NCBI GenBank assembly: GCA_030649025.1
Contig: JAUSGO010000016.1
Location: 4,851 to 68,850 of the forward strand
Direction of reading: 5' to 3'
DNA from: a bacterium
GTDB taxonomy: Bacteria; Patescibacteriota; Minisyncoccia; JAUYLV01
Length of the DNA: 64,000 nucleotides
Below, piece after piece: positions 2,149-55,909 of this stretch. Both the position numbers and the translations under genes were made by a program. The notes under the pieces are model-generated. The model saw only the letters and a program-made list of their open reading frames with translations, searched no databases and was not told where the DNA came from. Position 1 is the stretch's first letter, and every line of letters starts with the position of its first letter.

Positions 2149-2225
2149 TGGTGGGCGGCACAGGGGTCGAACCTGTTGCCTCGTCGATGTCAACGACGCG
2201 CTCTAACCAGTTGAGCTAGCCGCCC
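2149..2225 (-). tRNA. tRNA-Val (anticodon GAC), CCA encoded
   Basis: Manual cloverleaf fold of reverse complement: acceptor GGGCGGC/GCCGCCC, D-stem GCTC/GAGC, anticodon stem CGTCG/CGACG with loop TTGACAT, T-arm ACAGG-TTCGACC-CCTGT, discriminator A plus CCA; 77 nt. Confidence 0.85.
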
Positions 2226-11127: not shown

Positions 11128-11172
11128 AATTTAAAACTTTCCACAAATTTTTCTTTTTTATTTTTGCGTTCC

Positions 11173-12096
11173 TTACCACCTGAACGGCGCGAGATGCACC
11201 GACTTTAGTATAGCATCTCCGAAGAAAAAAGCGGCGATTGCGGCGGGAGCCAAAAACGCTCCGAACGGCACTTCCGATTTCAACGTCTTTTTATTGACCA
11301 GGATGAGCGCCAAACCGACAAGAGAACCGCTGAAAGACGCGAGCAGAAGCGCAACAAGAACATTCCAAAATCCAAGAAACAATCCCATGAAGACTGCGAG
11401 CTTCACGTCGCCAAGTCCCATCCAGACACCACGAGAAATAATGATGAGTAAAAGAAAAAATGCCGCCCCGACCAAAGATCCTGCCACGTTTGGCAAACTG
11501 CAATTCACTGTTGGAATTCCGCACGCAAAGATAAAACGGTTGGCGAGAATGAGACACGAAAAGAGCGCAATAGCGGGCAACATGACACGGTCGGGGATGA
11601 GAAAATGGCGTACGTCCGTTACAAATATGACCAAAAACACGCAGATAGCGAATAACGCATAGCTGATGGCAAGAATATTTGTAACATCGGGAAAAAGTCC
11701 GGTTATAGAGAATTGTGTTGCTGCTTCAGAAACATTCGGCAAAAAACCAAGGGGCTCTGTTGCGCGCTTCTCCATCCACCAATATGTAAAACTAAAAAGA
11801 ACGCCGCTTGACAGCTCCACAAGAGGATATTGAAGGGAGATGCGTTCTTTGCACGAACGGCACCTGCCGCCAAGGACCACAAAGGACCATAACGGAATGA
11901 GTTCGTACCACTCGAGAATTCGCGCGCAATGACGGCAGTGGGATCGCCTCTGCACCACCTCCTCGCCTTCCGGAATGCGCCAGATGAGCACATTAAGGAA
12001 GCTTCCCACAATAAGGCCGAGAAGGAATAAGAACACCAGAATAAACCATAGGGGCATCATAAACATAAGTATACCCGTTAGGAGAAGCTCGACCAA
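11173..12096 (-). CDS. pilD: Prepilin peptidase / N-methyltransferase PilD (A24 family)
   Basis: N-terminal Zn-binding CRHC...CRSC tetracysteine, multiple TM helices, conserved GDVKL aspartate region; 307 aa. Confidence 0.9.
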   Translation of the reverse strand: MVELLLTGILMFMMPLWFILVFLFLLGLIVGSFLNVLIWRIPEGEEVVQRRSHCRHCARILEWYELIPLWSFVVLGGRCRSCKERISLQYPLVELSSGVLFSFTYWWMEKRATEPLGFLPNVSEAATQFSITGLFPDVTNILAISYALFAICVFLVIFVTDVRHFLIPDRVMLPAIALFSCLILANRFIFACGIPTVNCSLPNVAGSLVGAAFFLLLIIISRGVWMGLGDVKLAVFMGLFLGFWNVLVALLLASFSGSLVGLALILVNKKTLKSEVPFGAFLAPAAIAAFFFGDAILKSVHLAPFRW

Positions 12097-43997: not shown

Positions 43998-46900
43998 ATG
44001 AAATTCGTGCACCTCCACGTCCATTCGCACTATTCGCTTCTTGACGGACTTTCAAAAATAGATGAGCTTGTGGTGCGCGCAAAGGAATTGGGCATGGAGG
44101 CTCTCGCACTAACAGACCATGGTGCCATGTATGGCATCATTGAATTTTATCAGAAGGCAAAAAAAGCTGGCATCAAACCCATTATTGGACAGGAATTCTA
44201 TGTTACGGCAGGCTCTATGCATGATAAGCGCGCGAAAATAGACGACCAGCGCTACCACTTGACGGTTCTCGCAAAAAATAACATTGGGTATAAAAACCTC
44301 ATCAAGCTCTCCACTGTCGCGCATCTGGAGGGTTTTTATTATAAGCCTCGGATCGACAGGCCGACGCTTGCAAAACATTCCGAAGGCCTCATTGGGCTTT
44401 CGGGGTGCCTCAATGGAGAAATTCCCAAAGCTCTGCTTTCGGGAGACCTGGAGCGCGCAAGATCGTTGGCTAAGGAATACCAGCATATTTTCGGAAAAGA
44501 GAATTTCTATCTGGAAATACAGCGCCATAGCAATATGAAGGAGCTCGAGACGGTAAATCCGGGACTTGAGAAACTCTCGGGGGAACTTGGTATACCGCTT
44601 GTAGCCACCTGCGATTCACATTATCTGCGTTCGGATGACCGAGAAACGCAGGATGTACTGGTTTGCATTCAAACGAACCAGAGCCTCGCGAAAGAAGAGC
44701 GGCTTACAATGAAAGACAACGACTACTCTCTGAAGTCTCCGGCAGAGATGTTCGAGCTTTTCGGAGACATGCCGCAAGCCATTGAAAACACCGTCCGTAT
44801 TGCCGAACAATGCAACGTAGAAATAGAGCTTGGAAAATCCCAACTTCCGCATTTCACGGTACCGGAAGGCTATGAAACAAATTCGTATCTTGAGATGCTG
44901 TGTCAAAGAGGATTAGAAAAGCGATACGGAATTTCCGCACCGGAAAAGAGAGAGCTTTCCGAGAAAGAACGTGAGATCGTTTCGAGGCTTGAATACGAAC
45001 TTGGAGTCATCGAAAAAACAGGATTCGGGTCATATTTCCTCATCGTGCAGGATTTTGTAAACTGGGCAAAAAACCAGGGTATTGTAGTGGGCCCCGGCAG
45101 GGGGTCTGCCGCAGGGAGCATTGTTTCTTACCTTCTTAACATTACCAATCTTGATCCTATCGCTCACGAACTCCTTTTTGAACGATTTCTGAACCCGGAG
45201 CGCATTTCCATGCCCGATATAGACCTTGACTTTGCCGATACGCGAAGAGACGAGGTCTTGGACTATGTTACGCAAAAATACGGCGCAGACCACGTGGCGC
45301 AGATCATCACCTTCGGCACCATGGCGGCCCGCGCCGCCATCCGAGACGCGGGAAGGGCTCTCGGCTATAACTATGGTTTATGCGACCGAATAGCCAAGCT
45401 CATCCCCGCTATGACCGACTTCAAAAAGACCATGGACAGCGTGGATGAGTTCAGGCAACTCTACAATACCGACCCTGAAGTGAAGCGACTTGTGAATGTT
45501 GCGCGTAAACTTGAGGGCGTAGCGCGCCATGCCTCCACCCATGCCTGTGGCGTGGTTATTTCCAAAGACCCGCTCACCGACTCGGTGCCCCTGCAGCAAG
45601 CCACCAATGGGGAAACGCTGGATGGTGAAAAAGTAAAAACCATCGTCACGCAGTATGAGATGCATGCGGTGGGAGAAGATGGTATTGGGCTCTTAAAGAT
45701 GGACTTTTTGGGGCTTATGAACCTCACTACTATTGAAGAAGCTCTTAAATTAATTCGTGAAAATCATGGACTAGATCTCAATATCGACACCTTAGAGCTA
45801 AATGATAAGAAAACATTCGAACTTTTCCGAAGGGCCCGCACCGTCGGCGTCTTCCAATTCGAATCACAGGGCATGCAAAGATATATGAAGGATCTGCGAC
45901 CTACGCAGTTCGAGGACCTGGTCGCTATGGTCGCGCTCTTCCGCCCCGGTCCCATGGAACTTATCCCCTCCTACATCAAACGCAAGCACGGGGAGGAACG
46001 AATCACCTATCTGCACCCAAAACTCGAACCCATTCTTAAAAATACCTACGGCGTGATCGTTTACCAGGAGCAAGTGATGGACATGGCGACCAACCTTGCC
46101 GGCCTTACCAAGGGCGAAGGATACCTTCTGATAAAAGCCGTAGGGAAAAAAATAAAATCACTGCTCGACGAGCAGAAAGATAAATTTATCAGCGGCTGCC
46201 GCAAGAACGGTGTTCCGGCCGAGACCGCAAACCGGGTTTGGGAGCTCATCGAGCCGTTCGCCCGGTACGGCTTCAATAAAGCCCACTCCGCATGCTACGC
46301 CCTGACCGGTTACCGGACAGGGTATCTCAAAGCAAACTATCCCAAGGAATTCATGACCGCGCTCTTAAACAGCGAATACGGCGACGTGGAACGGATCTCC
46401 GTGCTCATCGAAGAATGCCGCGAGATGCATATTCCGGTGCTCCCGCCAGATATCAACGAAAGCGGCATTAAATTCTCGGTGGTACAAAACGAAAGCGGGA
46501 GCGGCCAAGAGTACTCGGCACTTCCCCAGGAGAACCATATCAATAAAAAAGTAGATTCCGGGGGCGCCATCCGGTTTGGGCTTTCGGCCATAAAGAACGT
46601 GGGCGACAACGTGGTGCGCGTCATCGTGGAGGAACGTAAACGCAACGGAATTTTTACTTCTTTGCAGAACTTACTTGACCGCATTGATTCCAAGGACTTG
46701 AACAAAAAAAGCCTGGAAGCGCTTATGAAGGCCGGCGCATTCGATTCGCTCGGCGAAGACCGGGGCACGCTTCTGGCGTCCGTAGAAACGATGCTGAAGT
46801 ATGTGCGCGAAACCAAGAAGGTCCGTGAATCGGCACAGGCTTCACTCTTTGGAGGCGCCTCCACGGGTATATCATTTTCATTGCGGCTGGAAAAAGCCGA

Positions 46901-47324
46901 GCCCGCGTCCAAGTCCGATAAACTCGCCTGGGAAAAAGAGCTTTTGGGACTTTACGTGTCACAACATCCCTTGGACGATTTTCGCGACGCACTCCATAAA
47001 ACGACTATGCCGTTACATGAATTGGAAAGCGCGCAGGGACGTATCGTTACTGTAGGCGGCATGCTCACTCGACTGAAAAAAATCATCACCAAAACCGGCA
47101 AGCCCATGTACTTCGGAGAGCTTGAAGACCACACGGGAAAAGCGGAGGTAGTGCTGTTCCCCACAATCCTGGAAAAATATGGAGCGCTCTTGAAAGAAGA
47201 TGCGATACTCATCATGAACGGCAGGGTTGACCGCAGACAGAACGGGAATGGAAATGGATTTGCTTCGGACAGTCCGAAATTCATCTGCGAAACGGTAAAA
47301 GAACTTACCGCCCAAAGCGGTTGA
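43998..47324 (+). CDS. dnaE: DNA polymerase III alpha subunit
   Basis: N-terminal PHP domain MKFVHLHVHSHYSLLDG, polymerase core, OB fold; 1108 aa. Confidence 0.95.
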   Translation: MKFVHLHVHSHYSLLDGLSKIDELVVRAKELGMEALALTDHGAMYGIIEFYQKAKKAGIKPIIGQEFYVTAGSMHDKRAKIDDQRYHLTVLAKNNIGYKNLIKLSTVAHLEGFYYKPRIDRPTLAKHSEGLIGLSGCLNGEIPKALLSGDLERARSLAKEYQHIFGKENFYLEIQRHSNMKELETVNPGLEKLSGELGIPLVATCDSHYLRSDDRETQDVLVCIQTNQSLAKEERLTMKDNDYSLKSPAEMFELFGDMPQAIENTVRIAEQCNVEIELGKSQLPHFTVPEGYETNSYLEMLCQRGLEKRYGISAPEKRELSEKEREIVSRLEYELGVIEKTGFGSYFLIVQDFVNWAKNQGIVVGPGRGSAAGSIVSYLLNITNLDPIAHELLFERFLNPERISMPDIDLDFADTRRDEVLDYVTQKYGADHVAQIITFGTMAARAAIRDAGRALGYNYGLCDRIAKLIPAMTDFKKTMDSVDEFRQLYNTDPEVKRLVNVARKLEGVARHASTHACGVVISKDPLTDSVPLQQATNGETLDGEKVKTIVTQYEMHAVGEDGIGLLKMDFLGLMNLTTIEEALKLIRENHGLDLNIDTLELNDKKTFELFRRARTVGVFQFESQGMQRYMKDLRPTQFEDLVAMVALFRPGPMELIPSYIKRKHGEERITYLHPKLEPILKNTYGVIVYQEQVMDMATNLAGLTKGEGYLLIKAVGKKIKSLLDEQKDKFISGCRKNGVPAETANRVWELIEPFARYGFNKAHSACYALTGYRTGYLKANYPKEFMTALLNSEYGDVERISVLIEECREMHIPVLPPDINESGIKFSVVQNESGSGQEYSALPQENHINKKVDSGGAIRFGLSAIKNVGDNVVRVIVEERKRNGIFTSLQNLLDRIDSKDLNKKSLEALMKAGAFDSLGEDRGTLLASVETMLKYVRETKKVRESAQASLFGGASTGISFSLRLEKAEPASKSDKLAWEKELLGLYVSQHPLDDFRDALHKTTMPLHELESAQGRIVTVGGMLTRLKKIITKTGKPMYFGELEDHTGKAEVVLFPTILEKYGALLKEDAILIMNGRVDRRQNGNGNGFASDSPKFICETVKELTAQSG

Positions 47325-47405
47325 CGCACTCTTGAAGTGTGATACCCTTCAGGCTAGGAGGGCTTTTGTTCATTTCCAACAATTCCAAGAGTAAAAGGAG
47401 ACAAT

Positions 47406-48446
47406 ATGAGATCGGTGACATTCGCAATGGGAGTTCTGGCTGCCCTTTTCATCTGTTCGGACGCGAAGACCCAGACACCCACGTCAAGCGATGAGGGTAT
47501 GGTCGTCACAACGGCCACAGTAGTGACCAAAGGCGGAGACGTAATTGTAAGCCCGCTACTGGAAAAAGAGAATTTTCGCGTATTCGACTGCAAAAACGCA
47601 AAAAAGCGCAAAGATTGCGTTGAACAGGAAATTGTTTTTTTTAGTTCGCCGAAGGAACAGGAACCGATAATCACGGTCCTCACGCTCGATTACTCCCGGA
47701 CCGCCTTTCTTGTCAGTTGTCTCGGTGAGAACGATCCTTACGCATGCGGCTACTATGGCTCGAAGGGCGCCATCGAGGAGGGCCCCATAGCGTTCCTGCA
47801 AAATCTGAAGCCGCAAGATTGGGTGGCGTTCGTGACCTACGACATGAAGCCGGAGGTCGCAGTGGAGTTCACAAAGAACAAGGATGAGGTACGAAACGCC
47901 CTGGCAGGACTTTTTACCATGCCACCGGTATTTTCCGACAGCAACTTGTTCGACACTCTCTTCTACGTGCTCGACCATATCGAGAACGGAGAAAATTTGG
48001 AGGCGCAAAAAAAGCGCGCTACCATTATTCTCGTCTCCACCGGCATTGATACGATGAGCAAGAAAACGTTCGACCAGATGCAAAAACGCCTTAGGGATAC
48101 GCCTGTTGCCATCTACGCGGTACGCATTGGGAAGTCTTACGAGAACCGATCCGGCGCGAACCTGCTACAGGCGGAAAGCCAGCTGAAAGAGATCACGAAC
48201 CTCACGGGAGGAAAAACGTACTCCCCTTCTTTTTCCGGAGAATTCAGGGGCATATTCGGCGACATCTCCGCGATGTTGCGCTCCCAGTACAGCATTGGGT
48301 GGGTACCAAAGAACGTGAAGGCGGATGGAAAATTCCACGAGATTCTTATTGAGGTCACGGGAGATTTTTTGGACAATGCAACGCAAAAACCACTCGAAAT
48401 CAAAGTACGGCATCGCAAGGGATACATTGCGCCAGACAATCGTTAA
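47406..48446 (+). CDS. Secreted von Willebrand factor A-like domain protein
   Basis: Signal peptide MRSVTFAMGVLAALFICSDA; VWA-like beta-alpha core (ITVLTLDYSRTAF...ATIILVSTGIDT). Confidence 0.5.
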   Translation: MRSVTFAMGVLAALFICSDAKTQTPTSSDEGMVVTTATVVTKGGDVIVSPLLEKENFRVFDCKNAKKRKDCVEQEIVFFSSPKEQEPIITVLTLDYSRTAFLVSCLGENDPYACGYYGSKGAIEEGPIAFLQNLKPQDWVAFVTYDMKPEVAVEFTKNKDEVRNALAGLFTMPPVFSDSNLFDTLFYVLDHIENGENLEAQKKRATIILVSTGIDTMSKKTFDQMQKRLRDTPVAIYAVRIGKSYENRSGANLLQAESQLKEITNLTGGKTYSPSFSGEFRGIFGDISAMLRSQYSIGWVPKNVKADGKFHEILIEVTGDFLDNATQKPLEIKVRHRKGYIAPDNR

Positions 48447-48452
48447 AAACCG

Positions 48453-48479
48453 ACTGCGGACATACTCCGCAGTTTTTTT
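48453..48479 (+). terminator. Rho-independent terminator ACTGCGGA-CATAC-TCCGCAGT plus TTTTTTT
   Basis: Perfect 8-bp stem 7 nt after the stop of the VWA gene. Confidence 0.7.
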
Positions 48480-48490
48480 GCCCGTTTCTT

Positions 48491-48524
48491 CTCATTCTCA
48501 CATTCTCAAGAATGTGAGAATGAG
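48491..48524. promoter_or_regulatory. Perfect 16-bp-arm palindrome CTCATTCTCACATTCT-CA-AGAATGTGAGAATGAG just upstream of the tRNA-fMet promoter
   Basis: 34-bp perfect inverted repeat ending 14 bp before the -35 hexamer; candidate operator or second terminator hairpin. Confidence 0.4.
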
Positions 48525-48537
48525 AACTATGTTAGTA

Positions 48538-48565
48538 TTGCCAAACTTGCCCCAAGCAGTATACT
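48538..48565 (+). promoter_or_regulatory. Sigma70-like promoter TTGCCA -16 nt- TATACT for tRNA-fMet
   Basis: -10 hexamer ends 5 nt before tRNA nucleotide +1. Confidence 0.55.
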
Positions 48566-48570
48566 GTATC

Positions 48571-48644
48571 CGCGGGGTAGAGCAGCCCGGTAGCTCGCAG
48601 GGCTCATAACCCTGAGGTCGTTGGTTCGAATCCAACCCCCGCAA
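48571..48644 (+). tRNA. Initiator tRNA-fMet (anticodon CAT), CCA not encoded
   Basis: CGCGGGGTAGAGCAGCCCGGTAGCTCGCAGGGCTCATAACCCTGAGGTCGTTGGTTCGAATCCAACCCCCGCAA: C1xA72 mismatch and three G-C pairs in the anticodon stem, the initiator hallmarks. Confidence 0.88.
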
Positions 48645-48992
48645 CAAGCAGCGAATCAGCGCAAAAACCCCGAAGGGGGTTTTTGTTTTATCTTGGTACT
48701 CGCTGCGCAGTGGCCATGGCCTCACCAGAGGCCAGTGGCTACACTCAATAACTAAACTCGTAGCGAAGCGGAGAGCTTCATACGATCCGAGCAAAAAACC
48801 GAATCCAACCCCCGCAACAAGCAGCGAATCAGCGCAAAAACCCCGAAGGGGGTTTTTGTTTTATCTTGGTACTCGCTGCGCAGTGGCCATGGCCTCACCA
48901 GAGGCCAGTGGCTACACTCAATAACTAAACTCGTAGCGCAAGCGGAGAGACGAATACGAGCCGAGCAAAAAACCGAATCCAACCCCCGCAAC
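48627..48992 (+). repeat. Tandem direct repeat (two near-identical 173/174-bp units plus a partial third), each beginning with the 19-nt tRNA-fMet 3' end CGAATCCAACCCCCGCAAC
   Basis: Copies of CGAATCCAACCCCCGCAAC at 48627-48645 (inside the tRNA), 48800-48818 and 48974-48992; each unit also contains a terminator-like hairpin CCCCGAAGGGGGTTTTTG and hairpin TGGCCTC-ACCA-GAGGCCA. Confidence 0.75.
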
Positions 48993-49073
48993 CATTGACG
49001 AATAGTAGATCTCTGTGCTATTCTTTATTTTCCGCAAAGCACTTTCCAAATTAAACTCCGGGGGAGGTTTACA

Positions 49074-49565
49074 ATGCCAAACATTTCCCATGCTTCGCTC
49101 AGCATAGATTTCATTCGATCCCAACAGAAACTTTTCTTGAATCACCCGACGCAATACTGCGAGAAAATATTTACTACCGTCTGTGATTCGGAGGGGTCAG
49201 GTAGAGTTACGGGAATAGTTTACCTTTTGCTGAATCGGCACTATGGTGATCCTGCGTCGCTAGGATTTTTGTTAATCTTGGGATTCCTGGATCGCTTCAA
49301 CGCGCAGAATGGCAATCCTAAATGGCTCACCACATGTTGTGAAGAAATGAACCGCCAAGAAAACCGTAGTACCGTTCGTGAATATGCAATCTTCTTTATA
49401 ACCAATCCCGGATTAGAGATGGAAAAACTCCAGGAAAGTATTGGCAACTTACCCATAAAGACTCTTATCCAGGATGGTGAAGCAAGGTGGGGTCAACAAT
49501 TCACCGTCGGTGCATACTGCGCTCTAGGGATACTGCTTGCCTCAAACAACGAATCTATCCAGTAA
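49074..49565 (+). CDS. Hypothetical protein (163 aa) between tRNA 3'-end repeat copies 3 and 4
   Basis: GGGGGAGG Shine-Dalgarno 6 nt upstream of the ATG; no recognisable motifs. Confidence 0.45.
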   Translation: MPNISHASLSIDFIRSQQKLFLNHPTQYCEKIFTTVCDSEGSGRVTGIVYLLLNRHYGDPASLGFLLILGFLDRFNAQNGNPKWLTTCCEEMNRQENRSTVREYAIFFITNPGLEMEKLQESIGNLPIKTLIQDGEARWGQQFTVGAYCALGILLASNNESIQ

Positions 49566-49654
49566 CTAAGGGGTTACACGCTGACCCGCCTGGTATCGCT
49601 CGCCTCGCTAAGACTCGGCGAAGCGGGCCCAGCGGTTTTTTTACCAATTTCTCA

Positions 49655-49689
49655 CAGCCGAGCACAAAACCGAATTCAACCCCCGCAAC
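49655..49689 (+). repeat. Fourth copy of the tRNA-fMet 3'-end repeat (CCGAGCACAAAACCGAATTCAACCCCCGCAAC)
   Basis: Matches the unit ends CCGAGCAAAAAACCGAATCCAACCCCCGCAAC with two substitutions; 663 bp beyond copy 3. Confidence 0.6.
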
Positions 49690-49696
49690 TAAGGAA

Positions 49697-49725
49697 ATAA
49701 CCGCATTTGTGTGCGGTTATTTTTT
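49697..49725 (+). terminator. Rho-independent terminator ATAACCGCA-TTTGTG-TGCGGTTAT plus TTTTT
   Basis: 9-bp perfect stem followed by a T-run, directly after repeat copy 4. Confidence 0.6.
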
Positions 49726-49821
49726 ATAAGGGAATTAGTGGTTTGAACCGCATCTAGTTTTGACAAAGAGATCGCGCTGAGATAGATTGATAATAATTCC
49801 ATTTCGTTTAGGAGGGCAACG

Positions 49822-50163
49822 ATGCCGACTATTAGCAAAGATTTAGCGGAAAGAGAAATCGTTCGGCTGAAGAAACAGAAGCGTCCGAAAGTCTACTGCA
49901 TTGTGCGCTATCAGAACCGTCTCAAAGGAGACGGTGAGAAAATAATGTATTCTGATTATGCCATCTGCTACAAGCGTGAGCATTACGACTCACTCATGCG
50001 AAGCGGCTTCATCGGTGGAATCGATGTGCTGTGGGCAAGTGAAAAGTTCAAAACAGAAAATAGATCGGAGGAAATGGACGAGGGGGACATTGAAGATTAT
50101 TTACTCTCCGACGAGTTCATAAAATCGTTAAAGAAGAAAAAAATCCTTCGCCGCCGCAAGTAG
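49822..50163 (+). CDS. Hypothetical protein (113 aa, basic C-terminus)
   Basis: AGGAGG RBS 6 nt upstream; promoter-like TTGACA -17 nt- TAGATT about 60 nt upstream. Confidence 0.45.
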   Translation: MPTISKDLAEREIVRLKKQKRPKVYCIVRYQNRLKGDGEKIMYSDYAICYKREHYDSLMRSGFIGGIDVLWASEKFKTENRSEEMDEGDIEDYLLSDEFIKSLKKKKILRRRK

Positions 50164-50441
50164 CTCATAGAGCGAAAGCGGTTTTTTCATATCTCAAGCT
50201 GTGCTAAATGAGTAGATCTCTCCCAAAAAAGCCATAATCTGTTGCCAAGTACGTCCGAGTTCCGTAATAAAGCCGGTGAAGCAGTCGAGAAGTCGGCTGT
50301 TTCTCTTTTTGTATTGCTGTTTTTCGGCGGTTTAAAACATTTTCGAATTATTTTTAATTTATTTTAATATTGCTTGAATGGCTGTGATTTGACGTGTGCG
50401 CCTAAAGTTCCGCGCTCATGCTATACTAAGAAGGCTCGTGT

Positions 50442-51365
50442 ATGACCCTCCGTTCTCTCCATTTAAAGCATATTTTACTTCTGGCTCTTGGCGGCATAAC
50501 TGCTGCGGTTTTTTTAGGAGAAGTACTTTTTTTTCTATGGCATTCGGGCAAAGTTGAATTGCCATCCTTTATCATACATTCAGCGCGGATTATTTTAGCA
50601 AACATAGCGCCGCAGCCCACAGGTGGCGTAAAACTAGATCTGCCATTCCACCAGCAGGAACATTCGCTCTCTTGCGAAATGGCCAGCCTGAAAAATGCGT
50701 TTTACGCCTATGGACTGGATGTACCGGAAGCGGAAATCATCCGCGCCCTGTCTCTTGATCCCACGCCGCGTAAAAATGGCATATGGGGAGATCCGCAAAA
50801 AGGATTTGTGGGTTCTGTAGATGGACGAGCCCTGGTGGATGGTTATGGGGTTTATGCCGAGCCGATTGCCCGGGTAGGCCTGCGGTGGAAGCGAACCGAG
50901 GTTTTGCAACAACCCAGCGTCCAGGATTTGGCCTACCACATCACCCTTGGTCACCCGATCATCGTTTGGGGCTATTTAGGCCGTGGCCAGAAAGTCTCCT
51001 GGACAACTCCGGAGGGCAAGAGCATTGTTGCGGTTAATGCGGAACATACGCGCCTGGTGTACGGCTTTGAGGGGTCGGCAAGCGATCCTCAGGGATTTTT
51101 CCTAATCGACCCAACCTATGGACATGCATATTGGAAACGCGACGTCTTTATGGAAAATTGGGAAGCGCTGGATCGCATGGCGGTAGTGGTTTATCCGCAT
51201 CCGCGCTGGGTGCGCGCAACCGGCACCCGGGAGATTTGGGAAATTTCGAAAGATGGTAAAACGCGGCGCCATGTCGGCGAGGAAGAATTTATGCAAAGCG
51301 GGGGTTTTCCGGAAGCGGTGAAAGAGATACTGGTGGAAGAATTGGATCGATTTGAAGTGGAATAG
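50442..51365 (+). CDS. Membrane-anchored C39-like cysteine peptidase domain protein (Peptidase_C39_2/YvpB-like)
   Basis: N-terminal TM helix; candidate catalytic Cys in HSLSCEMASLKNAFYAYG; conserved His region downstream. Confidence 0.6.
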   Translation: MTLRSLHLKHILLLALGGITAAVFLGEVLFFLWHSGKVELPSFIIHSARIILANIAPQPTGGVKLDLPFHQQEHSLSCEMASLKNAFYAYGLDVPEAEIIRALSLDPTPRKNGIWGDPQKGFVGSVDGRALVDGYGVYAEPIARVGLRWKRTEVLQQPSVQDLAYHITLGHPIIVWGYLGRGQKVSWTTPEGKSIVAVNAEHTRLVYGFEGSASDPQGFFLIDPTYGHAYWKRDVFMENWEALDRMAVVVYPHPRWVRATGTREIWEISKDGKTRRHVGEEEFMQSGGFPEAVKEILVEELDRFEVE

Positions 51366-51396
51366 ATTTTGCCTGTATCCGTATTGTCATTAGCCT

Positions 51397-52239
51397 ATGC
51401 GCATGCCAAAGAAATTTTTATTGGTTTCGGGATTGCTCTTGGCCATTCTGCTTGGCGGGGGGATTCGGTATGCAAAAAAGCATCGGGAGCGCACCATCAC
51501 TCTGCCTTCAGTTCTGCCGTATGTCAGCCCGAGAACTAGCACAATGACGAGTCCGGTGGCGGAGATGCCTTCCCTGGCGCCGTCCACATCTCGTTCCATT
51601 CCAACTCCCGTGGCGAGTATCCCTTCCTTGCCCAGCGCTACAGTACTTCCCCCCATTTCACCGCCAACACTTGCGGCAGAAGTTAATTTGGCCATTCCTT
51701 TTGCCGTACAAGCCCCCTACCAGAACTGGGAAGCTCCGTATGATGAATTTTGCGAAGAAGCATCCGTGCTTATGGCGGCTAGCTACATTCTGAATCGCAC
51801 CCTCCCGAACGCCGCTACGATAGACGCGGGACTGCTCGCCATTAAAGCATTCGAAGAGGAGCGTTTCGGCTACTATAAAGACACGACCGCGGAAGAGACG
51901 GCTGTAATTTTGCGCGAGTATTTTAATATCTCAAATGTGGCCGTTGTTTACGATCCGACAATTGAGGATATTAAAAAAGCCATTGCCGCAGGCAGGGCGG
52001 TGATAGTACCTGCCGCAGGCAGGCAACTCCTCAATCCGTACTTCCGCCAACCGGGCCCCCTGTACCATATGTTGGTGATCAAAGGCTACCTGCGGGATGG
52101 CACGTTTATTACGAACGACCCGGGCACGCGCCGCGGAGCAGATTTTCTTTATGACCCCGAGGTGTTGCTTGGTGCGGTGCACGACTGGAATGGCGGCGAC
52201 GTTGAAAATGGCCGGAAAGTCATGATTGTTGTGGGGTAA
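51397..52239 (+). CDS. Second membrane-anchored C39-like cysteine peptidase domain protein (paralogue of the upstream gene) with Pro/Ser-rich linker
   Basis: PYQNWEAPYDEFCEEASVLMAASYI (catalytic Cys) and HMLVIKGY (His); N-terminal TM helix; low-complexity P/S/T linker. Confidence 0.6.
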   Translation: MRMPKKFLLVSGLLLAILLGGGIRYAKKHRERTITLPSVLPYVSPRTSTMTSPVAEMPSLAPSTSRSIPTPVASIPSLPSATVLPPISPPTLAAEVNLAIPFAVQAPYQNWEAPYDEFCEEASVLMAASYILNRTLPNAATIDAGLLAIKAFEEERFGYYKDTTAEETAVILREYFNISNVAVVYDPTIEDIKKAIAAGRAVIVPAAGRQLLNPYFRQPGPLYHMLVIKGYLRDGTFITNDPGTRRGADFLYDPEVLLGAVHDWNGGDVENGRKVMIVVG

Positions 52240-52422
52240 GATATTGGATGCTGGACTGCCAAGTTCGGGCGGAGCAATGCGAGTGTCCAAGGACATCACG
52301 CCCGCCCCCTCAACACGATTTGACACACTGGGGATGGTGCGTTATTTTTTTGATGTAGCGCGAAGCTACCTGCTGTGTCCAGATCAACTGTTCACGCAGA
52401 TCTCCAAGAAGGAGGAGTCGCC

Positions 52423-52866
52423 ATGTGGTTCTTTAAACGCAAAGGTCCAGCAAGCGAGATGCAGGCTGCCCAACTTGTCGCCTTTGAAAGGGCGCTCGAT
52501 GTTTTGAACCGTATCAACATCAGATTTCGTCCAGAGATGGCTGAAATGATTCTCTTGTCGCAGCAATTCAATCTGCGCGATAACTGCCCGGTAACGGTCA
52601 CGCAATTCTCAGATTGGGTGAGCGCGAAAGATTGTTCTTGGGCGCAAGGCTCATTTGTATTTCGAGCAGGGGCATTCACTGTGCATATAATTGTTGCGCT
52701 CACCGAAAAAGCAAAAACCAGGTGGATGCCCCACTCAACCACCATAGCAGTTGAGACGGGCGACAAGGTGCGCAGGTTAAGTTTGGGAGACGGAGTCCCT
52801 GCAAAAGATCAGCAAATTCTCTTTGACTTCACCTGCACCGGAGAATTTAGCACGCAGCTGATCTGA
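52423..52866 (+). CDS. Hypothetical protein (147 aa); start moved to ATG 52423 with AAGGAGG RBS
   Basis: Strong Shine-Dalgarno AAGGAGG 8 nt upstream of the internal ATG; followed by a terminator. Confidence 0.45.
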   Translation: MWFFKRKGPASEMQAAQLVAFERALDVLNRINIRFRPEMAEMILLSQQFNLRDNCPVTVTQFSDWVSAKDCSWAQGSFVFRAGAFTVHIIVALTEKAKTRWMPHSTTIAVETGDKVRRLSLGDGVPAKDQQILFDFTCTGEFSTQLI

Positions 52867-52874
52867 GATTGCTC

Positions 52875-52904
52875 AAGGCGCCTTAACTGGTGCCTTTTCT
52901 TTTC
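52875..52904 (+). terminator. Rho-independent terminator AAGGCGCC-TTAACT-GGTGCCTT plus T-run
   Basis: 8-bp stem (one G-U) followed by TTTTCTTTT. Confidence 0.5.
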
Positions 52905-52926
52905 AAGAAAATTTCACCATCGAATT

Positions 52927-52951
52927 AAAAAAACCGCTCACGGGGAGCGGT
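52927..52951 (-). terminator. Rho-independent terminator (ACCGCTC-loop-GAGCGGT plus U-run) after gene 52971-54287; convergent with the plus-strand terminator
   Basis: Minus-strand RNA reads ACCGCTCCCCGTGAGCGGTTTTTTT. Confidence 0.55.
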
Positions 52952-52970
52952 CGGACGAAGTCCGGGGTTC

Positions 52971-54287
52971 TTAGGGATTGGTAAGCCGGAAAAGGGGTTC
53001 GAAGCTCTTCCAGCGTTTCACGAGCGCAGTTACCTGCCTGATGAGTTCGAGGTTTGCGCCGTCTATCTGCCGGATGGCCGTGGAGCTGTCCGGCGACATT
53101 GCCGAGAGAACATCAGTGTGTTTCGCGGTAAATTTGTGGCCGAGTTCGTGGATAAGGTTTGACACAAGAGCGTCGCGCGAGAATCCAGCGTCCCACCAAA
53201 GAAGGAGGAATCCTCTTCCCTCCAGGCCGACATCGCGTTTGAAGCACGTCGCATCTTTTCCACAGTTTTGCGGTTGCAGTATCACGGAATTGGTGAGGAA
53301 TATATTGAGAGTGTTCGGAGCCCTTTTTGCGTTGCTCGCGAACGACCATAGATCGGCGTTCTTTGAAAGAGAGAACGTTTGCGTATCGCGCACGAAAGCG
53401 GCAGTGCCCGTTTGTCGGAAAAAATCTCCGAACGCTTCATTGACGATATCCGTGAGTGCCTCGGGGCGCGTCTCGTCAAGCGGCTCTTCAAGCCATAACG
53501 TTACCGGCAAAGTAAGCACCGGCCTCGGCCGATACCAGAGCACGTAGCGGCTTGCAAGTTGCGATTGGTCCACCGCGGAGACGATGCGAATGTCGTGCTC
53601 GCCGCGAAGCTCGTTTGCCGCTTCGACTGCTTTTGCGTAAGTACGGCCGCAATCTTTTGCTTCCCACCGGATGTCCGGAGCTGGCGCAGCGTCTTGGTAG
53701 ACAACGTGCCACTTCGACTGCACTTGCGAACCGACCCAGAAAAATGACACGGCAGGCCTCGCCTTCCAGCGAGAAGACGCCGGCAATTCATTAAGAGCCG
53801 CCAGTGCGTCTTCCTCCGAAGCAAAGAATCCGGTCGACGCCAAATTTCCGCAATCCGTGCACTGGCCGGGTTGATAGAAAAGCGCGAACTCCGCACTTTG
53901 CGCTGCTTCGTGCCACGATGCATGAAGCCGCCATACGGGAATTGACGAGCGATTGCCGTTTACGAATTCCGAAAGTTCCTCGCGCGATCCCTTTAAAAGC
54001 TGCCAACGTCCTGCGATTTGCGTAAGGGGCTTGCGTGCCGTCAGCACAGCCCAGCGGCCGGAAATCTCCGAAGCCGTGCCGGCTTGATAGACGGTAAAGA
54101 AATCGACCGCTTCGCGGTCTTCCGGAAGCGAGTTTGCAAAAAGCATCGCTTCCTCCGGAGTTGCAAACTGTTCCGATGCTGCAAAACTGGGCGAGACGGA
54201 ATCTTCGGCGCGGGCAGGCACCTGTAGCTCCACGAACCAGACAAACGAGATCGAAAGAGTCACAAGAAGCCTGTAGAGTTTTTGCAT
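52971..54287 (-). CDS. Secreted putative zinc metallopeptidase (HExxH) of unknown family
   Basis: Signal peptide MQKLYRLLVTLSISFVWFVELQVPARA; C-terminal LIHELGHKFTAKHTD zincin-like motif. Confidence 0.45.
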   Translation of the reverse strand: MQKLYRLLVTLSISFVWFVELQVPARAEDSVSPSFAASEQFATPEEAMLFANSLPEDREAVDFFTVYQAGTASEISGRWAVLTARKPLTQIAGRWQLLKGSREELSEFVNGNRSSIPVWRLHASWHEAAQSAEFALFYQPGQCTDCGNLASTGFFASEEDALAALNELPASSRWKARPAVSFFWVGSQVQSKWHVVYQDAAPAPDIRWEAKDCGRTYAKAVEAANELRGEHDIRIVSAVDQSQLASRYVLWYRPRPVLTLPVTLWLEEPLDETRPEALTDIVNEAFGDFFRQTGTAAFVRDTQTFSLSKNADLWSFASNAKRAPNTLNIFLTNSVILQPQNCGKDATCFKRDVGLEGRGFLLLWWDAGFSRDALVSNLIHELGHKFTAKHTDVLSAMSPDSSTAIRQIDGANLELIRQVTALVKRWKSFEPLFRLTNP

Positions 54288-54392
54288 GACAGAACCTCCC
54301 TTTTTTGATATGTCAAAGAAAAATACTTAAGTTTCAGTGTCTCATAAAAATAGACCGGACGTCAAGCCACTCACTTTTTAACTAAAAATCCC

Positions 54393-54420
54393 GCCTATAA
54401 GACGGGAATGTGTCAGAGAG
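54393..54420 (-). terminator. Putative rho-independent terminator (CCCG-loop-CGGG plus U-run) downstream of uppS
   Basis: Minus-strand RNA reads CATTCCCGTCTTATAGGCGGGATTTTTAG; short stem, so weak. Confidence 0.35.
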
Positions 54421-54438
54421 AGCGCTTGAAATGCGAAT

Positions 54439-55170
54439 CTAAGAGCCTAGCTTCCTTCTTCGTTCGCTAAAATCTTCTAGAGCCCGAACAAGCTCATCTT
54501 TCGAAAAATCCGGCCATAACGTCTTGGTGTGGTAACGTTCGGCATTCGCAGAAAGCCACATCAGAAACCCAGCGCTATTATGCGACCACCCGGCCATTTC
54601 TTCTCCGGCACGTATCTCCAAATCCACATCGGGCAAAAATCCCGTCGCAAGAACCGAGAGAAGATTTTTCTCATCCACCGGCAATCCATTTTTAATCATT
54701 TGGGATGCGGCTTCGAGCGTCTCCCGCTTGTCGTTATTTCCGAAAAGAACGGTAAGGTGCCGGCCGGTGAACTCCGCCGTCTCACCCTGAAGGGCACCGA
54801 TGAGCCGATCGAGGCGCTGGACGAGCTTTACAAGACCGCGATCCTCAAGGATCTCTTTCCACCTACCGATGACGCGGAACCTGATACGGTCATTGCGGAG
54901 CCTTTGCGATTTCAGTTCCCCATCCAACCCGTTGGAGAAAATATCGACCAAGGCCTCTACTTCTTTGAGGGCGCGTTTTTGCAGATTGGCTTCCGAGGCA
55001 GCCCAGAACGTAACATAGGGAACGCCGGACTTAAAAACCGCTTGGGTTATCTCTCGAAATTTCTCCTCTCCCTTCTTATGGCCATTCCAGGGAAGCAAAC
55101 CCTTCTTTTTTGCCCATCGCCGATTACCGTCAGGGATGATCGTTATATGCTTGGGAATGTGCTGTGTCAT
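54439..55170 (-). CDS. uppS: Undecaprenyl diphosphate synthase (cis-isoprenyl transferase)
   Basis: HITIIPDGNRRWAKKKGL signature of cis-prenyltransferases; 243 aa. Confidence 0.92.
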   Translation of the reverse strand: MTQHIPKHITIIPDGNRRWAKKKGLLPWNGHKKGEEKFREITQAVFKSGVPYVTFWAASEANLQKRALKEVEALVDIFSNGLDGELKSQRLRNDRIRFRVIGRWKEILEDRGLVKLVQRLDRLIGALQGETAEFTGRHLTVLFGNNDKRETLEAASQMIKNGLPVDEKNLLSVLATGFLPDVDLEIRAGEEMAGWSHNSAGFLMWLSANAERYHTKTLWPDFSKDELVRALEDFSERRRKLGS

Positions 55171-55228
55171 AAAACAGTGCCTCCGGAATTTGTAAGTATA
55201 CAGATGATCCCAAAAGGGTCAACCCCGT

Positions 55229-55909
55229 TTAGTGGTCCGCGTAGAGAAAATTCGAGCTGTTAAGGTCCGGATTCGGACATACAGAACACCAGCCTTTTTC
55301 GGGATCCTGTTCGTGCGAGTACCAGCAATGCTTTGAGCACACTAAAATATCTTCCGGTTCCTCAAGTTGAGCGATAAGTTCGTAATCATCGCCGGTTAAT
55401 GAATAATATCCGTATGAATAATTTCCTTGGATGCGCGGATCCGGAGTATTATTCAGCGGATCACGCGGTAGTCCCGCCAAAAACTCCTGCAGGCTGGTGT
55501 CGGGGTCTTCTTCTTCAAAACAGACATTACAGCCAATCCAGTAGTCCGAGTCTGTGCTGAACTGCCAGGATAGCGTTCCCTTCTTCTTGCTATTTTTTTG
55601 TTTCCCGTAGGCATGTCCCCCACCACCGCCTCCGCCCCCACCACCGCCTCCGCCTTCATCGGTAATTGGATAGTTCTCGAACTTGTCATAATAGAGGCCC
55701 AGACCCAGTTGTATTTGACGCAGGTCTGATTTGCGTTTTGCGTCCCGCGAGCGAATTCTCCCCAACCTAAGAGAGGCAAGCAGCAAGGAAGCAAGAAGTC
55801 CAATGATGGAAATAACGACCAGAAGCTCAATAAGAGTAAATCCTCTGAACCATCGCGTGGCACGAGAACTGAAATGCGGAATCCTGCGCCCTATGCTGTC
55901 TTGCGTCAT
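55229..55909 (-). CDS. Type IV pilin / GspG-like pseudopilin with internal poly-Gly tract
   Basis: RG|FTLIELLVVISIIGLLASLLLASL...SRDAKRKSDLRQIQLGLGLYY classic PulG/major-pilin N-terminal domain; G14 run. Confidence 0.75.
   Translation of the reverse strand: MTQDSIGRRIPHFSSRATRWFRGFTLIELLVVISIIGLLASLLLASLRLGRIRSRDAKRKSDLRQIQLGLGLYYDKFENYPITDEGGGGGGGGGGGGGHAYGKQKNSKKKGTLSWQFSTDSDYWIGCNVCFEEEDPDTSLQEFLAGLPRDPLNNTPDPRIQGNYSYGYYSLTGDDYELIAQLEEPEDILVCSKHCWYSHEQDPEKGWCSVCPNPDLNSSNFLYADH
55617..55652. repeat. Perfect tandem duplication of the 18-bp unit CCCCCACCACCGCCTCCG inside the pilin gene (encodes the Gly14 tract)
   Basis: Two identical adjacent 18-mers at 55617-55634 and 55635-55652. Confidence 0.8.

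Follow-up and report, generated by a model that had tools for sequence, protein, structure and literature searches.

The tyrT/tyrV locus of E. coli carries 178-bp repeats, which are usually assumed to be plain tandem duplications. To our knowledge, the origin of this classical tyrT-distal array is not settled. Its unit contains the tiny tpr ORF and yields a transcript that is processed into rtT RNA, and the copy number of the array varies in unit steps, from 1 to 4 copies among strains (5,426 genomes). Tandem ssrA-specific islands have been described in Dehalococcoides, sixteen with a serine-recombinase integration module, and many strains are available for comparison (McMurdie et al., 2011; PMC3146451). 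Cis-mobilizable elements (CIMEs), described along with site-specific accretion, are related to co-resident or known ICEs or IMEs, and their mobilization was shown experimentally (Pavlovic et al., 2004, reviewed in PMC5704250). In the standard model, an element decays to a CIME and accretion follows (PMC5704250).

Here, an array of related design is described behind an initiator tRNA gene. The source sequence is a MAG (locus tags Q7S09_*; reads from run SRR13727527), and the 64-kb stretch that was analysed, hereafter the window, belongs to an 87-kb contig. The tRNA is followed in order by E1 (154 nt, gene-less), E2 (155 nt, gene-less), E3 (678 nt) and what appears to be the old tRNA terminator. 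Our reading of this locus is that three site-specific integrative elements, all of them decayed, lie in tandem at the 3' end of the initiator tRNA gene, and we assign this reading a probability of about 0.58.

The initiator tRNA gene and its recurring 3' end

ARAGORN and Rfam (64.3 bits) agree on a tRNA-Met(CAT) at 48571-48645 on the + strand. Read by hand, all three bacterial initiator marks are present, namely the C1-A72 mismatch, G29G30G31:C39C40C41 and A11:U24. A promoter-like site (TTGCCA, 16 nt, TATACT) at 48538-48565 on the same strand matches the consensus at 10 of 12 positions and ends 6 nt upstream of the tRNA. The full T-arm of the tRNA is GGTCGTTGGTTCGAATCCAACCCCCGCAAC. This gene is the putative attB/attL host gene of the array.

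The initial annotation reported that the last 19 nt of the tRNA recur three times downstream, each time behind a common motif, and sequence searches bore out both statements. The core, CGAATCCAACCCCCGCAAC, corresponds to tRNA positions 56-74 (T-loop C56 to C74). Copy 1 lies within the tRNA gene itself (48627-48645). Copies 2 (48800-48818) and 3 (48974-48992) are exact, and copy 3 is followed by CA, which spells the full CCA. Copy 4 (49671-49689) has one mismatch (C to T); it is the most degenerate and presumably the oldest attR. All four are on the + strand. Across the window 0.02 core matches would be expected by chance, and no others were found with up to 3 mismatches.

The motif CCGAGCA(A/C)AAAACC is directly adjacent to copies 2-4 on their upstream side (48787, 48961 and 49658). 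The last C of the motif is the first base of the core, and the non-tRNA arm is 13 nt long, CCGAGCA(A/C)AAAAC. In E1 this arm reads CCGAGCAAAAAAC (48787-48799) and in E3 it reads CCGAGCACAAAAC (49658-49670), and the arm+core junction sequence is CCGAGCAnAAAAC+CGAATYCAACCCCCGCAAC. A second arm block of about 20 nt (block A), CTAA[G]ACTCG[TA]GCGAAGCGG, is common to E1/E2 and E3 (48752-48771 in E1, 49608-49626 in E3), with a similarity score reached by only 0-1 of 500-1000 shuffles. Despite these common right arm blocks, the interiors and left ends of E1/E2 and E3 are unrelated. The locus contains both direct repeats matching the 3' part of a tRNA and a conserved element-side arm beside them, as tRNA-targeting elements do.

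From C56 on, the core copies are identical to the tRNA at 19 of 19 positions (one mismatch in copy 4), and upstream of this point similarity is absent. Such an abrupt start in the T-loop would mark the junction of a recombination event rather than a tRNA duplicate in decay. An attB that starts in the T-loop is a known integrase preference (bioRxiv 10.1101/2020.11.02.365908). Copy 4, the farthest from the tRNA, is the sole degenerate copy, in its core as well as its arm. The right end of the unit was also considered as a decayed longer copy of the tRNA; this was rejected, as ungapped alignment upstream of the core gives about 35% identity, near random.

Two gene-less tandem units

TRF detects a period of 173 with 2.1 copies and 96% matches, in agreement with the two near-identical 173/174-bp units, each with a terminator, that had been noticed at the outset. 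The interior of unit 1, E1, spans 48646-48799 as delimited by TRF, alignment and folding, and E2 spans 48819-48973, both on the + strand. Their intrinsic terminators are found at 48661-48686 and 48834-48859. In E1, a 14-bp GC-rich hairpin (48710-48742) and a second hairpin (48758-48785) lie further downstream. Alignment shows that E1 and E2 are identical over 139 nt. Beyond that point, 1 indel and 5 substitutions separate them, confined to a 22-nt span of the right arm; the clustering of these six differences has a P of about 1e-4. E1 holds no plausible ORF, and its reverse-strand ORFs score negative on codons. No additional copies of the unit were found in the 64-kb window.

The single-gene segment and its surroundings

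E3 (48993-49670, + strand, GC 0.445) contains a promoter-like site (48995-49024), ORF163 (49074-49565, + strand) and a terminator hairpin (49590-49632) with a T7 run at 49636-49642. The 163-aa ORF is indeed bracketed by core copies 3 and 4, as first proposed. ORF163 is a real coding sequence, with a predicted nine-helix bundle (pLDDT 86.5) as its product. Beyond the last repeat, a strong hairpin with a T run follows core copy 4 immediately (49692-49725, + strand, -18.1 kcal/mol, z = -5.4). This hairpin is a candidate for the original tRNA terminator, predating any insertion.

ORF113 (49822-50163, + strand) follows the array with a promoter-like site of its own at 49760-49788, which fits its earlier description. 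It lies outside the repeats, yet within a low-GC stretch in which GC drops from about 0.52 to 0.42-0.45 (48950-50600). The codon log-likelihood ratio of ORF163 is 0.065, against 0.238 +/- 0.044 for host genes, and that of ORF113 is 0.141. Both values are below those of all 23 host genes (minimum 0.154), and both are clearly coding when compared with off-frames. The two ORFs had been called orphans, a label that did not hold for either. ORF163 has 6 remote homologues at 27-34% identity in a full phmmer scan, and ORF113 has homologues that are 64-78% identical, on contigs of an archaeon and of a Patescibacteria MAG. ORF113 thereby reads as a horizontally transferred gene. Atypical composition and transferred cargo are further features of tRNA-targeting elements that are present here. 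Searches of ORF163 and ORF113 against Pfam, PHROGs, PADLOC, IMG/VR and structure libraries gave no informative match, and the comparison with phage and plasmid proteins proposed in the initial annotation returned no phage, plasmid or defence family for either.

A possible fifth, degenerate repeat after ORF113 was also considered. This region aligns to the E3 arm with a score of 30, reached by 3 of 1000 shuffles. An unrelated terminator region scores 27, and the candidate was rejected as terminator-like composition.

Searches for a recombinase, an empty site and relatives

A Pfam screen of 40 ORFs from the window gave no match to an integrase, an excisionase or another recombinase family, which upholds the earlier remark that the window lacks an integrase. 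No recombinase is encoded in the segments themselves, which hold at most ORF163. An integron cassette array would likewise call for an integrase (intI), together with an attI site and structured attC sites, and the arm+core sequence is not an imperfect palindrome.

Outside this locus, the arm+core junction did not recur in IMG/VR, the JGI metagenomes, or the phage and plasmid collections, and these viral, metagenome, phage and plasmid collections contained neither an empty site nor a larger element. A looser pattern (a non-T base followed by the core) was applied to IMG/VR and the JGI metagenomes, where it returned intact tRNA-fMet genes with variant T-loops and chance matches in coding DNA. 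It also returned one other duplicated tRNA-fMet end, whose boundary is forced by the pattern and which is hence not independent evidence. The phage collection gave tRNA-to-tRNA matches only and the plasmid collection gave none. One contig with a lone core and no tRNA was taken as a chance match; an integrase-sized ORF is absent nearby.

Relatives were sought through the VWA protein that flanks the array. Among genome contigs only Aminicenantes matched (28-44% identity), with no tRNA nearby. The only relatives found in a large protein database are distant, with VWA proteins 52% and 47% identical. In the 52% relative, the VWA gene is followed by a different tRNA and then by two degenerate copies of the 3' half of that tRNA, and in the 47% relative the contig ends within its tRNA. 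Because the 52% relative has two such tRNA 3'-half copies at this place, this position behind the VWA gene collects tRNA-end repeats in the lineage. The initial annotation had pointed to related genomes as a source of empty sites or larger elements, and these relatives, the closest with a different tRNA, supplied neither.

A model of serial integration

The repeats, the arms, the terminators and the atypical composition are shown by the sequence, whereas integration, the order of events and the mechanism of doubling are inferred here from the anatomy of the locus. A recombinase, encoded elsewhere or since lost, would exchange strands within tRNA positions 56-74. Every insertion would rebuild the tRNA 3' end from element DNA and push the earlier copy downstream as attR, which would be composed of the element arm (...CTAA-ACTCG-GCGAAGCGG...CCGAGCAnAAAAC) and the 19-nt core. 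The oldest event would have given rise to E3, a one-gene remnant in which ORF163 keeps its own promoter and terminator; its attR would be copy 4, adjoining the apparent original tRNA terminator. Later, a relative of that element, alike in its right arm, would have inserted beside the tRNA. This element would now be a 154-nt gene-less stub made of two att arms, which gives the tRNA a new intrinsic terminator. The stub would then have doubled into E1 and E2, either through unequal exchange of the direct repeats on its two sides or through a second integration, with exchange between repeats being the probable route. By analogy, the unit-step changes of the E. coli array may be taken to support repeat-mediated gain and loss. 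Under this model, loss of E1/E2 would leave GGTCGTTGGTTCGAATCCAACCCCCGCAAC then CATTGACG, and loss of the whole array GGTCGTTGGTTCGAATCCAACCCCCGCAAC then TAAGGAAATAACC. Having no recombinase of its own, the array is most likely an inert scar; at most, a matching integrase could mobilize it in cis.

The initial annotation had suggested an att-like scar, left by serial integration and decay or by tandem duplication. The scar is favoured by the abrupt T-loop boundary, the shared arms, the atypical composition and a design akin to that of the Dehalococcoides islands and CIMEs. The age gradient may be counted on the same side, with the tRNA-distal copy as the sole degenerate one. The part of the proposal that rested on an empty site, a larger element or a second junction found no counterpart in the collections. 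Other points count against integration, among them the screen of 40 ORFs without a recombinase and the failure of ORF163 and ORF113 to match any phage, plasmid or defence family. In the attP reconstructed as arm-core-left end, the T-stem-like inverted repeat of the classical symmetric T-loop site is missing, and E1 and E3 have no left-arm similarity. Moreover, the positions at which E1 and E2 differ form a cluster instead of being scattered, a pattern for which a simple recent duplication does not account.

Alternative explanations

The array could also be a plain tandem duplication of the tRNA-distal region in which no mobile element took part. The sequence from the T-loop to about 154 nt downstream would have been duplicated repeatedly by illegitimate and then homologous unequal exchange, and a third unit would later have been mostly overwritten by the acquisition of ORF163, with only its right end kept. 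The clean head-to-tail array seen by TRF and the screen of 40 ORFs without an integrase agree with this, as does the right end of E3, which is homologous to that of the unit just as the end of a diverged unit would be. The E. coli array of like design gains and loses whole units among the 5,426 genomes; it may, however, itself be an old att scar and so does not discriminate. Duplication needs an extra event to bring in a promoter, gene and terminator of atypical composition as one module, set precisely between two cores and replacing the unit from the first base after the core. It also leaves unaccounted for the start in the T-loop, a site that integrases use, and on balance we consider it unlikely. 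A bolder form of the integration model is far less probable. In it, the 173-nt unit would still be active, as a miniature integrative element without genes that comprises two att arms and a tRNA terminator and forms the integrase counterpart of a MITE; a recombinase encoded elsewhere would copy it into and out of the initiator tRNA gene. The array would serve as a platform anchored at the tRNA, capturing single promoter-gene-terminator cassettes such as ORF163, and the rtT repeats of E. coli would be the same phenomenon.

A function for the 173-nt units, as an rtT-like small RNA or as a termination or processing module of the tRNA-fMet operon with the tRNA-like 19 nt as a 3'-processing signal, is improbable, if marginally less so than such a live element. 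It has a precedent in the rtT RNA of E. coli (rttR, 171 nt), which by its coordinates is one unit, with its end precisely on the CCA of the tRNA-like fragment (cf. Bosl and Kersten, 1991). Each unit here has a strong terminator, and unit 1 folds far better than shuffles (z = -4.2). Unit 2, however, folds worse (z = -2.4), and the six differences disrupt the second hairpin instead of compensating. An intrinsic terminator stands 16 nt after the tRNA and again after core copy 2, and no promoter-like site was found on the + strand inside the units; because of this, little of a unit should be transcribed, and the two terminators would argue against rtT-like co-transcription. No RtT or other Rfam family was matched even at E <= 10 (48400-50500 for the RtT covariance model), and the collections searched held no homologous unit from which covariation could be read. 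Least probable of all is an assembly artefact, in which short-read metagenome assembly would have expanded or mis-joined one repeat into two units. In its favour, the sequence comes from a MAG, the 139-nt identical stretch nears read length, and a k=31 assembly of run SRR13727527 breaks at the array. Nevertheless, the units differ at 6 positions, having been resolved as distinct sequences, and copies 3 and 4 lie in unique sequence. The Logan assembly of this run has both flanks exact (46537-48521 and 48963-55646), and its contig restarts at the first unique 31-mer after a shared 32-mer, which fits a repeat present in the reads. This restart requires two different continuations of the shared 32-mer in the reads, one from unit to unit and one from unit to ORF163.

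Comparison with known systems

If the integration model is right, an initiator-tRNA example from a poorly known uncultured lineage joins the tandem, decayed tRNA- and tmRNA-specific islands, and remnants of this kind can shrink to 154 nt, that is, to two att arms and a replacement tRNA terminator. For annotation, this would mean that the downstream core copies are not pseudo-tRNAs and that the tandem is not an assembly error.

The array shares several features with the Dehalococcoides ssrA islands. These have direct repeats of about 20 nt that equal the 3' end of a tRNA-like gene, a conserved element-derived motif of about 15 nt just upstream of each repeat that does not align with the gene, and several islands in tandem, many of them without integration genes (PMC3146451). 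Conversely, the Dehalococcoides islands extend over kilobases, with rdhA among their cargo (PMC3146451), whereas here the target is tRNA-fMet, the units measure 154-678 nt and hold at most one gene, and no recombinase is seen. E1, E2 and E3 are each bounded by cores and lack any recombinase, in line with CIMEs, which retain attL and attR but have lost integration and transfer genes. Unlike CIMEs, the array has no parent element in the viral, metagenome, phage and plasmid collections searched. E1 and E2 are also far smaller than any CIME known to us.

The closest look-alike is the 178-nt x3.1 repeat of E. coli tyrV (rtT). Like the tyrT-tyrV repeats (rtT RNA/rttR, tpr), the array stands directly behind a tRNA (173 nt x2.1 here). 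In both, the tandem units begin with the 18-19-nt 3' end of the tRNA, from the T-loop on, and a partial unit consisting of that fragment closes the array. The two have no sequence or Rfam similarity, and in contrast to the processed, tpr-bearing unit of E. coli, those described here open with a strong intrinsic terminator and contain no plausible ORF. The E. coli array also has no foreign gene between its repeats, unlike E3 with ORF163. Taken together, the array is most likely an ordinary, known kind of scar in unusually miniature form, with no new mechanism. The parallel with the tyrT-distal array suggests a testable common origin, in which both would be att scars amplified by repeat-mediated exchange; were the E. 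coli tyrT repeats such a scar, their attR sequence would be GAGTAATCCTTCCCCCACCACCA.

The Initiator tRNA Gene and Its Repeated 3' End

A tRNA-Met(CAT) gene was identified concordantly by ARAGORN and Rfam at 48571-48645. Three bacterial initiator marks can be read from its sequence: a C1-A72 mismatch, G29-31:C39-41 (three G-C pairs at the base of the anticodon stem) and A11:U24. A sigma-70-like promoter (TTGCCA/TATACT) ends 6 nt 5' of the gene. Between the terminator of the upstream VWA gene and the -35 element lies a perfect 18-bp inverted repeat, TTCTCATTCTCACATTCT ca AGAATGTGAGAATGAGAA (48489-48526), which may be an operator or other protein-binding site. Elsewhere in the window, ARAGORN called a 77-nt tRNA-Val(GAC) at 2149-2225 (minus strand), which the Rfam tRNA model did not report at its gathering threshold, the window's other two tRNAs being reported.

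The last 19 nt of tRNA-fMet (tRNA positions 56-74, here the core) are found three more times, as perfect copies at 48800-48818 and 48974-48992 and as a copy carrying one C-to-T change at 49671-49689; at up to 3 mismatches the 64-kb window holds no further match (0.02 expected). Directly 5' of each downstream core (3/3) stands the 13-nt motif CCGAGCA(A/C)AAAAC, here the arm, which the tRNA lacks, its corresponding position reading GGTCGTTGGTT. Tandem Repeats Finder (TRF) reported a period of 173 nt over 48627-48992 (2.1 copies, 96% matches). The repeats described in the initial annotation are thus borne out in every coordinate by core matches, arm motif and TRF period. Numbering cores outward, the order is tRNA (core 1), E1 (154 nt), core 2, E2 (155 nt), core 3, E3 (678 nt), core 4, a hairpin with T run, and the gene ORF113.

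Window 46537-48521 and 48963-55646 are both matched without differences by contigs from an independent k=31 Logan assembly of run SRR13727527. The second contig begins exactly at the first unique 31-mer after the shared 32-mer CCGAGCAAAAAACCGAATCCAACCCCCGCAAC, as expected of a de Bruijn graph if the 32-mer continues both into another unit and into ORF163, the gene inside E3. Because of this restart, together with six differences between E1 and E2, an assembly artefact is unlikely, and the exact copy number is provisional. The first of the two Logan contigs breaks off within the inverted repeat at 48489-48526.

Gene-Less Units and a One-Gene Module

E1 and E2 contain no credible ORF, and their reverse-strand ORFs have negative codon scores. 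In each unit, the core is followed after 16 nt by an intrinsic terminator (48661-48686 in E1, 48834-48859 in E2) and then, in the same order, by a 14-bp GC-rich hairpin (48710-48742 in E1), a second hairpin (48758-48785 in E1) and the arm. The portion of E1 lying 3' of its terminator has a fold z of -4.2 against shuffles. The first 139 nt of the two units are identical; the differences, one indel and five substitutions, all fall within 22 nt of the right arm (P about 1e-4 for this clustering). This clustering speaks against random mutation since a very recent, simple duplication, and could reflect either a conversion patch or the insertion of two elements that differed slightly.

E3 forms a complete module around a single gene. 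Its promoter-like site begins 3 nt after core 3 (TTGACG, 18 nt, TG-TATTCT). ORF163 (49074-49565) comes next, behind a strong ribosome-binding site, and the module ends in a long hairpin with a T7 run (49590-49642) and the arm. Directly after core 4, a further hairpin with T run (49692-49725; -18.1 kcal/mol, z = -5.4) is read as the terminator that the tRNA gene had originally.

The left ends and interiors of E1/E2 and E3 could not be aligned. At their right ends, both contain CTAA(G)ACTCG(TA)GCGAAGCGG, spaced 15 nt from the arm in E1 and 31 nt in E3, and the alignment score of this shared block was attained in 0/500 and 1/1000 shuffles. Since relatedness at the right ends extends past the 13-nt arm, the downstream copies are not bare tRNA fragments; each joins about 55-70 nt of homologous non-tRNA arm to the core, a composition that would qualify as attR-like. 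Changes in both core and arm are confined to core 4, the copy farthest from the tRNA, consistent with its being the oldest.

ORF163 and ORF113

The GC content drops from about 0.52 in the flanking DnaE and VWA genes to 0.42-0.45 over 48950-50600. Per-codon log-likelihoods were scored against 23 host genes (0.238 +/- 0.044, minimum 0.154); ORF163 scored 0.065 and ORF113 0.141, and the off-frames of both about -0.26 to -0.38. Both are therefore coding, yet atypical for the host genome. Neither encodes an integrase or excisionase, and in neither can a phage or plasmid function be recognised. The initial annotation had called both orphans, a label that does not hold, as each has relatives.

ORF113 (49822-50163) belongs to a small, highly conserved family with 39 invariant residues, whose other members lie on contigs L008 (10001-10291), L009 (2969-3259), L010 (10001-10234), L011 (377-688) and L012 (270-581). 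Homologues with 64-78% identity occur on an archaeal contig, in a Patescibacteria MAG and on two short contigs; the archaeal copy neighbours MCM, TBP, L15e and an ATP-dependent DNA ligase. DNA similarity within the family is limited to the coding region, and no tRNA adjoins the other copies. Transfer of this lone small gene between domains is clear, and the pattern indicates that it was recent. Its AF2 model is alpha/beta (pLDDT 74), and no PDB match or neighbour was found for it. Directly 3' of the low-GC stretch, 50442-52239 encodes two tandem paralogues with Peptidase_C39_2 domains (307 and 280 aa); in the Logan gene calling the second has a later start, giving 231 aa.

Recombinases and Related Loci

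Of 40 window ORFs scanned against Pfam, none matched an integrase or recombinase family. The scanned ORFs are housekeeping genes: TyrRS, a GatA-type amidase, LigA, type IV pilus parts, RecJ, RecO, ArgRS, FtsH, RNase III, NusB, RNase HII, DnaE, UppS, TrmD and a histidine kinase. The window belongs to an 87-kb MAG contig.

The species-representative genome collection yielded only Aminicenantes proteins at 28-44% identity, with no tRNA nearby. The nearest VWA homologues have 52 and 47% identity. In the 52% relative (L013; GCA_030699565.1, JAUYLV010000044.1) tRNA-Ile(TAT), at 11251-11323, lies behind the VWA gene, and after it come two degenerate copies of the tRNA's 3' half, from the anticodon loop on (11333-11358 and 11395-11420), separated by only 10-25 nt. 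As this relative also has them behind its tRNA, tRNA-end repeats accumulate at the VWA-tRNA position in the lineage. In the 47% relative, the contig end falls inside a tRNA(CAT).

The T-stem and acceptor end of the first L013 fragment differ in an internally compensated way, as if it derived from another tRNA. A copy of the first 11 nt of tRNA-Ile also lies 113 nt upstream of the tRNA (11137-11155). L013 (11137-11195) and a second relative's contig, L015 (1462-1515), share an element 5' of the tRNA, ...CGTAG.G.A.TGGGCA, a 9-10-bp hairpin of differing stem sequence and TGCGGG. It matched nothing in Rfam and may be either a structured element that is conserved or a tRNA-like piece from the 5' end.

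IMG/VR contains no arm-core junction. With the pattern relaxed to any non-T base plus core, nothing related turned up in IMG/VR or JGI metagenomes except one contig (Ga0315285_10132459, 146-309, minus strand), where a second copy of tRNA-fMet's 21-nt 3' end lies 89 nt beyond the gene. The search pattern itself forces this repeat boundary, so the contig is not counted as independent support. Its second copy is preceded by a tRNA D/anticodon-region fragment and a GC hairpin in place of the T-arm. Phage and plasmid collections returned only tRNA-to-tRNA matches or nothing.

Origin of the Array

From the observed repeats, arms, terminators and composition, we infer a recombinase, an order of events and a means of doubling, and read the array, with a probability of about 0.58, as three decayed insertions of related elements at tRNA-fMet. 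E3 would have inserted first, its attR being core 4 beside the old terminator. A related element would have followed, its remnant now holding two arms and a replacement terminator for the tRNA transcript. This stub would then have doubled into E1 and E2, by unequal exchange between flanking repeats or by a second integration. The reading proposed in the initial annotation is supported in part: anatomically it fits, but the scarce relatives yielded no empty-site comparison.

Plain duplication without any mobile element, the main rival, is an unlikely origin, although the array resembles its closest look-alike, that behind E. coli tyrT, where a 178-bp repeat occurs in 3.14 copies, each unit starting with the tRNA-Tyr end. 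In E. coli K-12 MG1655 (1286000-1288800) TRF confirmed this array directly behind tyrV (period 178, 3.1 copies, 95% matches). Each unit begins with AATCCTTCCCCCACCACCA, the tRNA 3' end from the T-loop on; the first is annotated as the sRNA rttR, whose end coincides exactly by coordinates with the CCA of the tRNA-like fragment, and contains the small ORF tpr. In 5,426 complete E. coli genomes, the RtT units annotated by RefSeq number one to four and locus length changes in steps of ~178 nt, so arrays of this design gain and lose whole units. Some of these genomes have one tRNA-Tyr gene at tyrT instead of two. Against plain duplication stand the foreign one-gene module exactly between two cores and the repeat boundary in the T-loop. 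The E. coli repeats might themselves have arisen by amplification of an att scar; duplication and insertion therefore do not exclude each other.

An rtT-like transcript from the window units is highly improbable, since they lack sequence or covariance-model similarity to RtT and, unlike the E. coli unit, open with a strong intrinsic terminator and have no promoter-like site. Very unlikely, too, is a reading in which the 173-nt unit would be live as a mini-element without genes, the array would serve as a platform for capturing cassettes and the E. coli rtT repeats would represent the same phenomenon.

Comparison With Known Islands

The reading as three decayed insertions is favored because the design matches known systems. 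In Dehalococcoides, ssrA-specific islands that lack genes or integrases have been read as cis-mobilizable elements (CIMEs) joined by accretion (PMC3146451). Shared between them and the window are a 19-20-nt repeat copying a tRNA-like gene's 3' end, an element-derived motif conserved immediately 5' of each repeat, and tandem segments of which some lack integration genes. The general CIME model has three steps: integration, decay that keeps attL and attR, and integration of the next element at the regenerated site (PMC5704250). An attB starting in the T-loop or anticodon loop is a known preference of integrase subfamilies (bioRxiv 10.1101/2020.11.02.365908); the window repeats start in the T-loop and those of L013 in the anticodon loop. 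The locus would thus belong to a known sort of system, as an island or CIME-like array beside a tRNA gene that is small, tandem and decayed; its miniature gene-less units, initiator-tRNA target and uncultured host make it noteworthy.
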